Positions 7,899-29,305 of a stretch of 37,713 bases of DNA are shown here, in pieces; position 1 is the stretch's first letter, and each line of letters starts with the position of its first letter. The stretch lies in IMG/VR virus record IMGVR_UViG_2802429240_000007; one strand, 5' to 3'. The notes below the pieces were generated by a model. The model had not been told where the DNA came from. It worked only from the letters and a program-made list of their open reading frames with translations, and ran no database searches. The DNA is from a virus (Duplodnaviria > Heunggongvirae > Uroviricota > Caudoviricetes). Both the position numbers and the translations under genes were made by a program.

Positions 7899-8248
7899 TA
7901 CATAATCCTCACAGGGTGTTCAAACGTCTGCGGTGTGCCCGCGTTATCCGTGACGGTGATTAACAGCAACAGCCAGCCGCGCTGGCCCGCTTTCGTGTCA
8001 ACGGTAATGGATTTTGCCCGCCCGTCATCGAGCAGTGGCTGAAGTGCCTGGCTGGCATACTGCGCCGCCAGTCTGTGAACACGGGGAACGTCTTTTTCCC
8101 GCTTCAGCTCGTGCAGGCGTGACCCCAGCGACGCATCCGCCCAGTAACTGCCAAGCGGTGTCGCCAGTCGCAGATAAACCGCGTTATGGAGTGTGTAAAT
8201 CCGGCGGCGTTCGTAGTCGCCGGTTGCAGGTGAAATCGTCTGGTCCAT
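7898..8248 (-). CDS. Baseplate protein (Mu gp46-like, GPW/gp25-like)
   Basis: 116 aa; synteny; preceded by the conserved late motif at 8287-8301. Confidence 0.6.
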   Translation of the reverse strand: MDQTISPATGDYERRRIYTLHNAVYLRLATPLGSYWADASLGSRLHELKREKDVPRVHRLAAQYASQALQPLLDDGRAKSITVDTKAGQRGWLLLLITVTDNAGTPQTFEHPVRIM

Positions 8249-8286
8249 GCCGCCAGTCTGGCAGCATGGACAGGTCAGAATCAGGT

Positions 8287-8301
8287 GAGGGTGTTCAGCA
8301 C
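8287..8301 (-). promoter_or_regulatory. Conserved late-operon motif, copy 3 (plus-strand GAGGGTGTTCAGCAC)
   Basis: Matches the core shared with the copies at 20245-20259 and 28404-28418; sits between the gp45-like stop and gp46-like start. Confidence 0.4.
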
Positions 8302-8955
8302 TTAATTAACCGGCGTGTCAGACATGCCGTGTGGGGTTGGGTGTTTGTGTGTTCCGATTTTAACGCCATTAATGGTGACGTCAACGGAGGTAAGCACACC
8401 ACCTACATGGTTGATGTTGCCTTCAAAAGTGGCGGCGTATTCCTTGCCCCCACTGATGGCCATGCCACCGTTGCCGGTGATTTTACCTTCCACCGTCAGC
8501 TTATCGCTGGCCGTCAGTAACGGTGTCGTGAATGCGGCGTTCTCCTCTGCCTCAACCTCATAGCGTTTGCATTTCACCCGGTAAACGTCACATTCTGTTT
8601 CAATAATCCGCCCGCGCTTCAGTACGATTTTTGCGCCTTCGTCGGTATACAGGGCCACCTCGCCGGGTTTCAGTTCCGTCAGGCGATATGCGCCGTGCTC
8701 TGTGGCCACGACGACGGTATGGGAGGTATTGCCGTTCAGCGGAACGGCAATACCCATTGAGCCGGGCGGCGGGGATGTGGTGAGGCCGTAATGCTGAAAA
8801 TACTCCGCACCGTCCAGCTGTTCGCCTGCCAGCCCGTTCAACTGAAGCAACTGTACTTTGGTCGAACTGTCCACCGTACCGGTCACCACCCTGAATGCCT
8901 GGCGAACGGCGGACAGCGCCTGCTGTATGCGCTGATTAATCTTGTCCCACATCAT
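8302..8955 (-). CDS. Baseplate spike/assembly protein V-like (Mu gp45-like)
   Basis: 217 aa; synteny downstream of the gp44-like gene. Confidence 0.6.
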   Translation of the reverse strand: MMWDKINQRIQQALSAVRQAFRVVTGTVDSSTKVQLLQLNGLAGEQLDGAEYFQHYGLTTSPPPGSMGIAVPLNGNTSHTVVVATEHGAYRLTELKPGEVALYTDEGAKIVLKRGRIIETECDVYRVKCKRYEVEAEENAAFTTPLLTASDKLTVEGKITGNGGMAISGGKEYAATFEGNINHVGGVLTSVDVTINGVKIGTHKHPTPHGMSDTPVN

Positions 8956-19087: not shown

Positions 19088-20212
19088 TTACTCGTCTCCT
19101 GCGTAACGGGCGACATCTTCTGGATCGACGCCCATCATTGAACAAATGGCGATATCGACATCGACGTCATCGCCGGTTTTAATCTGCGCCGGGGCAGGCG
19201 ACGGCGTTTTGGGTGGTTTGCCGCCGGTCTGGGTCTGACTGAGCGCAACAAGTTTCGGTGCGTTATCCAGCCAGGACTTAAAGCCGTTGATATCGCGGCT
19301 GGCGTAATCTTTCGCCCAGTCTTCCTGTGCCGGAAGCAGTCGCCCGTCAGACAGCGCCGCCTGAATCAGTGCCCCGGCTTCGGCCTCACCGGACTGTTGC
19401 GCCAGGACGGCATAACGTCCCTGAAGTTCTTCATATGCCGTCAGAGGGATATGCTTCGTCGGGTCATAGGCATTTGCTGACAGGCTGGCGATTTGCTCGT
19501 CTTTCTGATTCAGCAGGGCCAGCAGGCTGACGGATGCTGCCGCCGTTCCCTGACCGTTCGAAATCATGTCAACGACCTTTTGCAGCTCGCTTTTAATATC
19601 TTCCGCCGTTGAGGTCACCGGGAGGTTAAGCATCCAGCGCAGACTGGACAGCAAATCGTTTAACAGTTCTTCATCCACCGTTGTGGTCTCCGTTTCAGTT
19701 GACAGACTCGCCAGACGGCTGGCCGCAGCCAGCATGACCGCGTCCATACCGTCGAGCGCAGGGGTATTGGTCAGCGCAGCATGTAACAGCTCCAGCACTT
19801 CGCCGCGCTTGTTGTAGGCAAAAACAGGGGAAATAAATTTGTACTCACCGGCGGCAATCATGGCCGCCGCGTTCTCCGTCCACTCCACACCGGTGGCATA
19901 CAGACCCACACCTTCACGCCATTCCACCTGGCTGAACCAGCCCGCCGCCGGGGCGGGCTTGCCGTTGTTTACGGCGCGCAGCGTCTGATGTTCGTAATCA
20001 ATGACAAATGGCGTGGTACGGGCTGCCACCTGGGCGACAAGCTGCGCGGCCAGTTCGGCAGTCAGCACCCATTTACCGCTTTCGACTTCATCGGTATGTG
20101 GGCGACCATCCACCGCACTGAACTCGCCTGCCGGAAACAGCTGGATTTCGCTGTGGGTTGCTTTGGTGATTTCGAGGCTTAATGCCGCAATGTTCATCTT
20201 CATACGCGGCAT
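19088..20212 (-). CDS. Head protease/scaffold protein (Mu I-like)
   Basis: About 375 aa; start set at the MPRMKMN ATG (20212) because the longer track ORF runs into the conserved late motif; alternative ATGs at 20203 and 20196. Confidence 0.75.
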   Translation of the reverse strand: MPRMKMNIAALSLEITKATHSEIQLFPAGEFSAVDGRPHTDEVESGKWVLTAELAAQLVAQVAARTTPFVIDYEHQTLRAVNNGKPAPAAGWFSQVEWREGVGLYATGVEWTENAAAMIAAGEYKFISPVFAYNKRGEVLELLHAALTNTPALDGMDAVMLAAASRLASLSTETETTTVDEELLNDLLSSLRWMLNLPVTSTAEDIKSELQKVVDMISNGQGTAAASVSLLALLNQKDEQIASLSANAYDPTKHIPLTAYEELQGRYAVLAQQSGEAEAGALIQAALSDGRLLPAQEDWAKDYASRDINGFKSWLDNAPKLVALSQTQTGGKPPKTPSPAPAQIKTGDDVDVDIAICSMMGVDPEDVARYAGDE

Positions 20213-20233
20213 GATGACGGAAGGGGAGCACGG

Positions 20234-20259
20234 GGTACTGTGGAGGGTGTTCAGCACCC
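20234..20259 (-). promoter_or_regulatory. Conserved late-operon motif, copy 2 (plus-strand GGTACTGTGGAGGGTGTTCAGCACCC); candidate late promoter before I
   Basis: 22 of 26 positions identical to the copy at 28393-28418; lies 22-47 nt upstream of the I start. Confidence 0.45.
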
Positions 20260-20412
20260 TGCCATAACGCGAAAGGATAAAAGGGGAAATAAAACCGTTT
20301 TTAAAACCCTTTTAAAAACGATTCTGACAGCATTTACGGGGTGCAGTGCTGTAATGCCTCATCCGTGAGGCGTTTATGTTGTCACAGGCGATTACAGCGC
20401 GTTTGTGGCCAT

Positions 20413-27880: not shown

Positions 27881-28256
27881 CCCCTCCGCCGCGCAGTCTG
27901 GAAAACAGGCCGAACAGCGATGAAATTTCCTGTTGATAAAGAAAGGTCAGTATCTTGATGGATAACGCCGAGACACCGACCGCACACAATGCATCGAGCG
28001 GCTTGTCGTTGTAGTGGGTCAGCCACTGCATCAGTGACGCAGCCACGCCAGCCCCCAGAACGCCAACCACAAACGCGACGAGCAGGTGGATGGCCATTCG
28101 CCAGACCGGGATTTCTTTCTGCTGCGTGACAACAAAAAGCGCCCCGGCAAACGCGCCCACCACGACCCCGAAATCGGTATTGGTGAGAAGGCCAAACACA
28201 CTGGCACCACCGATGGTGACTGCCACAGCTCCGCCGCCTGATAAGGGTTCAGACAT
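27864..28256 (-). CDS. Membrane protein, holin candidate
   Basis: About 130 aa from the ATG at 28256 (MSEPLSGGG...), preceded by CAGGAGAAACTC; several TM segments; Gly-rich C-terminus. Confidence 0.45.
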   Translation of the reverse strand: MSEPLSGGGAVAVTIGGASVFGLLTNTDFGVVVGAFAGALFVVTQQKEIPVWRMAIHLLVAFVVGVLGAGVAASLMQWLTHYNDKPLDALCAVGVSALSIKILTFLYQQEISSLFGLFSRLRGGGGGNGK

Positions 28257-28392
28257 GAGTTTCTCCTGTAAATCTGAGCCACTGACGGCCCGTAAATAAC
28301 ACCCTGTCAAAGGCACAAAAGCCTTTTGCAGGGCGCTATCCCTTAAGGTGCCTTGTGGTCTGAGTGGACAGGGTAAACGGTCTGGTGTGGTG

Positions 28393-28418
28393 GGTACTGC
28401 TGGGGGTGTTCAGCACCC
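28393..28418 (-). promoter_or_regulatory. Conserved late-operon motif, copy 1 (plus-strand GGTACTGCTGGGGGTGTTCAGCACCC); candidate lysis promoter
   Basis: Intergenic between the Mor-region genes and the lysis cassette, about 140 nt upstream of the holin start. Confidence 0.45.
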
Positions 28419-28438: not shown

Positions 28439-28750
28439 TCAGAAGCGGGAAAGGGAATCCGGCGTAATAAGAGATTTATTACAAAGCGGAGCAGAGGCGT
28501 TCGCCTTTTCCATAGCTGCGCGCATCTCGTTTTCACTGGCGATGATGTCAGCAATGGCACACTGCAACGCTTCTTCCTGAACAACCATATCCGGTTGTTC
28601 AGCCATTCGGTTTAGCTGGCTGGCCAGATTTTTCATATAAGCGAAGCGGCGTCCGGCAGCATCCCGGGCCTGCTCTGAGTAGGCCGTATACTCGCCAAGT
28701 GCCGTATAGTTGGTCATAAGTGTCTCCTTTTTCTGAGGCCTATTAATCAA
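28439..28750 (-). CDS. Hypothetical protein in the Mu C (late activator) position
   Basis: 103-aa ORF (possibly starting at MTNYTALGEY); no helix-turn-helix obvious by eye. Confidence 0.4.
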   Translation of the reverse strand: MINRPQKKETLMTNYTALGEYTAYSEQARDAAGRRFAYMKNLASQLNRMAEQPDMVVQEEALQCAIADIIASENEMRAAMEKANASAPLCNKSLITPDSLSRF

Positions 28751-29210
28751 AAAGCCCCACCTGGGTGGGGCTTTTCAGCGAAGTCTGTTTTTGTCGTCGG
28801 TGTATCAGTTGCCATGCGTACCGATCTGAAATCCCGTAACGGGGACAGAGCAGTGCCAGCGCCTGCCGGTGTGAGCATCCGTCTTTTACATGCTGCTGTA
28901 AATCAGCCATAAAACGGGTGTTACGCAAGGCACGTAACGCATGATCACAACGGGGAATGTAAAACGGTGCACCGCCAAGAAAGCGGATCAGTTTGTTGAT
29001 TTCGTCTTCGGTCAGCACGTCATGTAACAGGGCATGGACACCGCCGGTGCGTCCGGCGTGTGCGCCGGTTTTACCGCTTAACGTCACGCCACCAAAAGAA
29101 CGAATCAACCGGGTCAGGGCGGGGAAGCCAATCACGCTAATCAGTTGCTGCACGGAATCGGGCAGCAGTGCCTGCGCATCGCGAAGATCTGTTTCACTGA
29201 AGGTCTGCAT
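28743..29210 (-). CDS. mor: Mor/C-family transcription activator
   Basis: 155 aa; C-terminal HTH-like segment (RYGISDRYAWQLI); directly downstream of the GemA-like gene as in Mu. Confidence 0.75.
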   Translation of the reverse strand: MQTFSETDLRDAQALLPDSVQQLISVIGFPALTRLIRSFGGVTLSGKTGAHAGRTGGVHALLHDVLTEDEINKLIRFLGGAPFYIPRCDHALRALRNTRFMADLQQHVKDGCSHRQALALLCPRYGISDRYAWQLIHRRQKQTSLKSPTQVGLFD

Positions 29211-29305
29211 GATGGCGTCTCCGGTAGTAACTTACTGTTATTATAGCCATACATGATCGCCTGTACAGACCACAAAAAAGCCCCTGCAAGGCAGGGGCTG
29301 ATTCT

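Follow-up and report, generated by a model that had tools for sequence, protein, structure and literature searches.

Three candidate late promoters with a putative Mor/C-type activator box in a Mu-like prophage of Escherichia coli

A short motif that occurs three times in a Mu-like E. coli prophage most probably (we put the probability at roughly 0.8) represents the activator boxes of three sigma-70-dependent late promoters, Plys, PI and P46, which would be read by a Mor/C-family protein encoded by the same prophage. In the mechanism that we propose, each promoter would consist of a 16-bp box at −53 to −38 with an imperfect dyad core, CTGA-N6-TCA, centred at −43.5. The box would be followed by a −35-like hexamer of poor quality (xTGAxx) and, after a spacer of 18 bp, by a −10 element that keeps only A−11 and T−7. 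Such promoters would be nearly silent without their activator. The 155-aa Mor/C-family protein would bind the box as an oligomer, and the bound activator would recruit or activate the host RNA polymerase, as Mu C does at TTAT-N6-ATAA. As an outcome, the lysis/packaging, head/tail and baseplate/fibre genes would be switched on together. Binding, activation, the transcription start points and a leaderless translation of the genes I and gp46 are all inferred from sequence comparison.

The window, by which we mean the whole stretch of DNA that was analysed (37,713 nucleotides, IMG/VR record IMGVR_UViG_2802429240_000007), is a Mu-like transposable prophage, the genes of which are encoded by the minus strand. 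Read in phage sense, they begin with the transposase genes A and B, GemA, one Mor-family gene, and the holins and endolysin. These are followed by the head genes (terminase, portal, F and G, then the protease I and the major head protein T) and by the tail genes, which run from sheath, tube, tape measure and N through the gp44-, gp45-, gp46- and gp47-like baseplate genes to the tail fibres. A PGAP-annotated prophage that is 97% identical to the window is located within tkt of E. coli AH19B041, and this prophage type was found in 55 of 5,426 complete E. coli genomes. Among deposited phage genomes, on the other hand, BLAST returned only weak, partial matches and no close annotated relative.

We gathered 79 IMG/VR loci via the major head protein T, with identities of 32–99%. 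The activator protein of the window, when used as the sole query, returned only relatives at 92–100%; farther ones were reached with the endolysin of a relative and with an alignment of activator proteins. The scan with this alignment, performed on one genome per species, yielded 24 loci from Edwardsiella, Xenorhabdus, Photorhabdus, Morganella, Yersinia, Serratia, Klebsiella, Citrobacter, Kosakonia, Pectobacterium, Symbiopectobacterium and one Neisseriaceae genome.

The 13-mer GGGTGTTCAGCAC is present in exactly three copies in the window, at 8289, 20245 and 28404, all on the plus strand; in phage sense (minus strand, the gene strand) its core reads GTGCTGAACACCC. When up to two mismatches are allowed, the window contains seven matches, compared with 0.93 expected, and none of 100 shuffles reaches seven. 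The first-pass annotation of this DNA had described three copies of the core in short gaps upstream of late gene blocks in phage sense. Both statements are borne out, the former by a count far above chance and the latter by the gene map, in which all three copies sit in short intergenic gaps of the minus-strand gene order. The copy at 28404 lies 20 nt past orf92 and about 150 nt ahead of the holin ATG at 28256, the copy at 20245 lies within the gap between G and I, and the copy at 8289 directly follows the TAA of the gp45-like gene, 48 nt ahead of the gp46-like ATG at 8248. The 26-mers at 28393–28418 and 20234–20259 are identical at 23 of 26 positions, not 22 as counted originally, and the GGTACTG that had been included in the motif corresponds to a weak −35-like hexamer (CAGTAC in phage sense) outside the box. 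When IMG/VR was scanned for the exact 15-mer, most of the contigs returned were unrelated, with matches that look like chance. These loci are invalid as a negative control, having been selected for the motif, which is why weight-matrix matches appear on both strands in that set.

A word search through the prophage and its relatives, which had been suggested as a check, was run and found the three copies in the window and the same three gaps occupied in the relatives. Relatives with a T protein at least 89% identical to that of the window keep all three copies in place, while in those at 70–82% identity the three places are occupied, on the same strand, by a related sequence, CCACTGAACCCCTTCA. 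Furthermore, the box retains its three positions and its strand in relatives of many genera, even though the flanks diverge. As conserved, it spans 16 bp and reads (G/C)(T/C)G-CTGA-N6-TCA; spelled out for the relatives, the unit consists of (G/C)(T/C)G- or CCA-, then CTGAAC-N-CC-(C/T)TCA. Conservation between −50 and −37 is partly by construction, since the regular expression with which the sites were collected fixes part of this stretch.

We had initially taken the motif for a GGGTG/CACCC palindrome or hairpin, a reading that the relatives led us to reject. The palindrome, or the hairpin that it could form, is lineage-specific: it is missing from relatives with CCACTGAACCCCTTCA, the gp46 copy cannot form it, and in close relatives it is disrupted without compensation (ACACCC to ACTCCC). 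Because relatives keep the box and lose the palindrome, we take the box as the conserved unit.

To the box is tied a second element at a fixed distance. When 73 non-identical sites drawn from all three site classes were aligned on the C of CTGA, a −10-like NAnnnT hexamer was found exactly 38 bp from this C in 71 of them, compared with at most 24 sites at any other offset. The figure of 71 out of 73 overstates the number of independent observations, since sites of the same class are kin by descent; the independent support lies in the three classes and several clades. Less confounded by descent is a paralogous comparison, in which the three site classes were compared with each other within each of 37 genomes. 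Between-class identity was 0.93–1.0 at −53 to −51 and remained high through −38, with values of 0.94 at −36 (C) and 0.72 at −34 (G). It was only about 0.1–0.35 over most of the spacer and reached 0.99 at both −11 (A) and −7 (T), the two key bases of the sigma-70 −10 element.

Counted from the predicted −10, CTGA occupies −50 to −47 and TCA −40 to −38, with the centre at −43.5, and the resulting layout comprises the box at −53 to −38, a weak −35-like hexamer, an 18-bp spacer and the −10. The −35-like hexamer lies at an offset of 14–19 from CTGA in all sites, a region in which only xTGAxx is recognisable. The elements predicted for the window are the following.

28401..28416, minus strand: Plys activator box, predicted −53 to −38, GTGCTGAACACCCCCA; an exact motif copy whose position is kept in relatives.
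28394..28399, minus strand: weak −35-like hexamer of Plys, CAGTAC (GGTACTG on the plus strand), placed by its offset from CTGA.
28370..28375, minus strand: predicted −10 of Plys, TACCCT, a TAnnnT at +38 from CTGA.
20242..20257, minus strand: PI activator box, predicted −53 to −38, GTGCTGAACACCCTCC; supported by the motif copy, the relatives and the weight matrix.
20235..20240, minus strand: weak −35-like hexamer of PI, CAGTAC, placed by its offset from CTGA and the matrix.
20211..20216, minus strand: predicted −10 of PI, CATCAT, an NAnnnT at +38.
8286..8301, minus strand: P46 activator box, predicted −53 to −38, GTGCTGAACACCCTCA; starts just past the gp45-like TAA.
8279..8284, minus strand: weak −35-like hexamer of P46, CTGATT, placed by its offset from CTGA and the matrix.
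8255..8260, minus strand: predicted −10 of P46, CAGACT, an NAnnnT at +38.

The −10 hexamers CATCAT, CAGACT and TACCCT are all weak, and the predicted start points are extrapolated from them. For Plys, a start near 28363 would leave a 5′ untranslated region of about 107 nt up to the holin ATG at 28256. A simple scan for the sigma-70 consensus found no full promoter at the three sites. Patterns for sigma-54, ECF/RpoE and sigma-28 promoters and for LexA boxes were also considered for the motif by eye and rejected, as their spacings do not fit.

Using a weight matrix that includes the −10, we recovered exactly three sites in the window, with scores of 35.7–38.4 bits. The next-best matches on both strands scored 3.4–4.1 bits, at the level of shuffled sequence (maximum 4.6). 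In the family loci (2.06 Mb), the matrix identified 210 sites in phage sense and none in antisense; no site was found in phage Mu. Together, these comparisons support the three sites as predicted late promoters for lysis, for the head gene I and for the baseplate gene gp46. The earlier suggestion that the motif marks late operon starts thus gains weight from the constant position of the box in relatives and from the −10-like hexamer at 38 bp. The same applies to the internal promoter proposed within the baseplate genes, where the gap between gp45 and gp46 contains a complete predicted promoter of the same type.

The candidate reader of the boxes is encoded a short distance upstream of Plys, separated from it by a single open reading frame.

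28743..29210, minus strand: Mor/C-family activator gene, 155 aa, putative box reader (Pfam Mor).
28439–28717, minus strand: orf92, between the activator gene and Plys.

That a Mor/C-family protein is encoded at 28743..29210 had been recognised before, and Pfam agrees, with a match to PF08765 of 28.3 bits (cut-off 24.9, E = 1.9e-6). The sequence match to the solved MuC chains is weak (E = 0.43), and the protein aligns with MuC and Mor over the FLGGxxFYIPRCD strand and the helix-turn-helix. Both the linker β-strand (GGxxFYIP) and the C-terminal helix-turn-helix are present, as seen from the alignment of FLGGAPFYIPRCD and LCPRYGISDRYAWQLIHRR with MuC and Mor, and G79, G80, Y84 and P86 are invariant. 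The residues of the MuC helix-turn-helix that interact with DNA are R98, S110, Q113, Y115, Q116 and R120 (cryo-EM preprint 10.1101/2025.05.02.651988). Among these contact residues, the 155-aa protein keeps S110, Q116 and R120 and shows the replacements Q113 to Y and Y115 to W, a pattern compatible with a changed DNA specificity. No second Mor/C gene was found in the window by tblastn, and PGAP likewise names a single Mor/C-family gene in the near-identical prophage.

Clamp-binding motifs have been described as N-terminal Qx[DE][LM]F and/or C-terminal QPDLF-like sequences (PMC12867686). The C-terminus of the activator reads QVGLFD (28746–28763, minus strand), and all homologues collected retain a QxxLF at their very C-terminus; this sequence resembles the β-clamp-binding motif recently shown to be necessary for MuC function. 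No N-terminal clamp-binding motif is evident in the 155-aa protein, the N-terminus of which is MQTFSETDL.

The strongest support for these proteins reading the boxes, although indirect, comes from the co-variation of box and activator type. The scoring matrix used for this comparison ignored −53 to −51, so that the box type was not prejudged. All 29 sites downstream of an activator gene of the window type have G at −51, and all 44 sites attributable to a sister gene, the L221 type, have A at this position. Four genomes (Xenorhabdus ehlersii, Photorhabdus cinerea and two of Morganella morganii) contain both paralogues, in the order L221-type gene, promoter with a CCA-type box, window-type gene, and GTG-/CTG-type boxes at lys and I. 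This order would reproduce the Mu cascade of Mor, Pm, C and late promoters, with a Mor-like followed by a C-like stage. Tandem Mor/C paralogues with their boxes are located at about 8900–10520 of the loci L302, L303, L306 and L307.

Because box type tracks activator type, including in the two-paralogue genomes, the comparison identifies the window protein as a putative late activator that would be C-like in position and function, rather than Mor-like as it had been labelled. We infer that this Mor/C-type protein binds the boxes. The earlier proposal of the motif as a candidate Mor/C-type binding site is supported by this co-variation and by the position of the box, which is that of the Mu C site.

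Upstream of the window's own activator gene we found no box. Directly upstream of this gene lie a terminator (29299..29279) and then a near-consensus promoter, TGTACA-16-TATAAT (29267..29240, minus strand). Relatives differ in this respect, the activator gene being either part of the early operon or preceded by a CCA-type box. In addition, the last codons of the activator gene contain a strong hairpin resembling an intrinsic terminator, AAAAGCCCCACC-CAGG-UGGGGCUUUU (28749–28776, minus strand, −20.6 kcal/mol), upstream of orf92; it was absent from the output of a simple terminator scan. As for orf92 itself, no family match was found. Two alleles of it, 45% identical, occur in otherwise near-identical prophages with the same box and activators that are 99–100% identical. 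In one clade (L221) it is swapped for an unrelated 168-aa open reading frame, and in L306, with about 60 nt between the activator gene and Plys, it is missing. By this pattern, orf92 seems to be an accessory gene of variable occurrence and sequence.

At I and gp46, the predicted −10 elements lie very close to the start codons.

20201..20203, minus strand: start codon of the protease/scaffold gene I, 7 nt past the −10, which would place it at the 5′ end of the transcript or immediately beside it; PGAP chose the same codon in the 97%-identical prophage.
8246..8248, minus strand: start codon of the gp46-like baseplate gene, 6 nt past the −10; its A is the predicted +1.
8245..8269, minus strand: hairpin/inverted repeat CCATGCTGCCAGACTGGCGGCATGG, with the −10 of P46 in its loop and the gp46 ATG paired.

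The duplexes with the anti-Shine-Dalgarno sequence (+1.2 kcal/mol for I and −1.5 kcal/mol for gp46) are the two weakest among 50 prophage genes, that of I being the weakest. An ATG 6–7 nt past the −10 and no Shine-Dalgarno sequence suggest that the mRNAs of I and gp46 may be leaderless or nearly leaderless. The gp46 start is GTG in one related lineage (L156, L157 and L165), which fits leaderless translation poorly.

The hairpin at gp46 is itself conserved. Across 13 relatives, 92% of the cells are paired, and compensatory changes occur at four pairs, including the change from ATG to GTG, for which the partner compensates with T to C. Its stability ranges from −10.0 to −23.8 kcal/mol across the class, with the window at −23.8 kcal/mol, and the mean z is −5.4. 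The presence of G-U pairs favours a structure at the RNA level. With its 5′ arm ahead of the predicted start, the hairpin would be contained only in read-through RNA from the gp45 operon, or else transcription would have a different start. One possibility is that the hairpin masks the AUG, which has no Shine-Dalgarno sequence, on read-through RNA. Weaker hairpins (mean z −2.0) are found upstream of I, and their register varies between lineages; since no single fixed structure could be scored, they were folded sequence by sequence.

These observations can be combined into a more far-reaching idea, which we regard as tentative and rather doubtful: I and gp46 would be translated only from leaderless mRNAs, and the covarying hairpin would silence the start codon on read-through transcripts. 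If this were true, promoter choice would license translation as well as transcription of I and gp46. As a separate part of the idea, Mor/C activators that coexist in one genome would be distinguished mainly by a single base, −51 being G or A. Should the leaderless prediction hold, it would represent an unusual way to start phage structural operons.

The gp46 hairpin also bears on where the promoter lies with respect to the box. The hexamer right past the box could serve as the −10 (CAGTAC or CTGATT in the window, CTGAAT or GATAAT in relatives), which would place the box at about −31 to −16, similar to a MotA box or the spacer site of a MerR-type regulator, and the ATG would then lie about 25 nt into the transcripts, the 5′ end of which would carry the hairpin. 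Such transcripts would account for the covariation of the hairpin with G-U pairs, by which an RNA containing the 5′ arm matters, and some relatives have good −10-like hexamers just past the box (GATAAT, GATTAT). In many sites, however, this hexamer is without the final T (CAGTAC, CTGAAC, CTGATC), whereas A−11 and T−7 at +38 are 99% conserved in the three classes, also at those lys sites that lack a hairpin at this place. Furthermore, the +38 layout reproduces the −43.5 centre of Mu to the base pair. Our first reading, with the box at about −30, was dropped for these NAnnnT hexamers at +38 and the Mu geometry; we now consider it unlikely and keep it in view mainly because of the hairpin overlying the gp46 site. 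An equally small chance falls to a reader other than the Mor/C-family protein, whether from the host or from the early phage proteins, orf92 among them. The location of orf92 directly upstream of Plys would suit such a role, but this gene is variable, replaced or missing in relatives that retain the box, and it was rejected as the reader for this reason. The box variant, moreover, follows the type of Mor/C paralogue even inside single genomes, and the box occupies the position of the Mu C site.

It is very improbable that the motif acts as RNA, with a GGGUG-CUGAA-CACCC hairpin that would serve processing, stabilisation or antitermination at operon junctions. The lys and I copies of the window can indeed fold, with −18.2 and −12.5 kcal/mol, respectively, but the gp46 copy cannot (−0.7 kcal/mol), and the loss of the palindrome from relatives with CCACTGAACCCCTTCA, as well as its uncompensated disruption in close ones, speaks against a conserved structure. 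A rigid distance to a −10-like hexamer would not be expected of an RNA signal either, and no Rfam family matched the window at gathering thresholds. Finally, short G+C-rich words do recur in phage genomes, and the chance-like look of most 15-mer matches in IMG/VR would agree with a chance repeat or a functionless remnant of repeated or mobile sequence. The shuffled sequences, which never reach the observed count, and above all the retention of positions and strand across many genera despite diverged flanks argue the opposite, and the comparative data effectively refute this explanation.

Taking the boxes as those of Mor/C-activated late promoters, we obtain a promoter model (box, −35-like hexamer, −10 and start) at single-base resolution for widespread Mu-like prophages of Enterobacterales. 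With this model, the Mor/C paradigm would come to include a second recognition sequence of unchanged geometry, and the model points out positions in protein and DNA that may set Mor/C specificity. In the two-paralogue genomes, activators and promoters seem to form an orthogonal pair of natural origin. Such pairs could be useful to dissect DNA recognition by Mor/C proteins, and they might also serve as genetic parts.

The closest known system is the late control of phage Mu. The four late promoters of Mu have −10 hexamers and are devoid of −35 hexamers; the binding site of C is an imperfect dyad of 16 bp with its centre at −43.5, protection by C extends over approximately −30 to −55, and Pmom has a 19-bp spacer from ACCACA to TAAGAT (PMC2582627). 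The consensus of the MuC site is TTAT-N5-6-ATAA (PMC12867686). Counting back from the −10 of the annotated Pmom with its 19-bp spacer, we located TTAT at −50 to −47 and ATAA at −40 to −37. The Mu sites and the boxes of the window therefore share their geometry, with the centre at −43.5 and TTAT/ATAA in the positions of CTGA/TCA. In Mu, the site is composed of 4 + 6 + 4 bp with a C-rich middle (TTAT-GCCCCA-ATAA in Pmom), and in the window it reads CTGA-ACACCC-TCA. The half-sites themselves differ, TTAT/ATAA in Mu as opposed to CTGA/TCA in the window. Because of these half-sites, and because the weight matrix finds nothing in Mu, the boxes are not MuC sites and would therefore be sites of another member of the Mor/C family.

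The likeness extends to the arrangement of the late genes. As predicted for the window, Mu has promoters before the lysis genes, before I and, as a third, within the tail/baseplate block, and in both the lysis genes are closely preceded by the activator gene. The location of the third promoter differs: in Mu it is inside N, upstream of P, while in the window it is predicted between gp45 and gp46 and does not occupy the position of Mu PP. Mu has a mom promoter and the window does not. At I and gp46 the window has no ribosome-binding site, whereas such sites are annotated there in Mu. The A/T palindrome CGTTTTTAAAAGGGTTTTAAAAACG with a T-run, at 20296–20320 in the gap between G and I, is kept in diverged relatives; it resembles the T5-6A4 repeats that lie by the strong gyrase site and a predicted terminator of Mu, at the same map position.

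With regard to the middle stage of Mu, Pm and Mor share the protein family and the promoter logic of the window, but the window prophage is without the first paralogue and its box. Having a single Mor/C gene, it would therefore have no separate middle stage, unlike Mu. The relatives in Xenorhabdus, Photorhabdus and Morganella, on the other hand, resemble Mu in their predicted Mor-to-C cascade, with a box variant of its own for each stage. In more distant loci (L183–L197, with T 44–51% identical), which contain MuC-like genes, repeats of the GTTATAACGCGTTATAAC type are found upstream of the I homologue, at about 8450–8600. They probably represent the counterpart, in another clade, of the activator boxes.

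A similar principle is known from the late promoters of P2, 186 and P4, which are controlled by the zinc-finger activators Ogr, Delta and B through a TGT-N12-ACA dyad centred near −55. As predicted for the window, one kind of activator dyad is common to several late operons, where it precedes weak sigma-70 promoters without a −35; the activator family is unrelated, however, and the dyad is a different one. For leaderless phage mRNAs, the example is lambda cI transcribed from PRM, with the start codon at the 5′ end and no Shine-Dalgarno sequence. Leaderless genes such as cI can also be located on a longer transcript from an upstream promoter. Compared with cI, the case of I and gp46 is predicted from the spacing between −10 and ATG and from the missing Shine-Dalgarno sequence, and it would concern structural late genes.

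Text searches of the literature did not find the box in print in a phage context. Judged from the sequence comparisons, what sets this prophage apart would be its distinct recognition sequence, the relocated third promoter, the single activator and, probably, leaderless starts at I and gp46; the kind of control, late promoters activated by a Mor/C-family protein, is already known from Mu.
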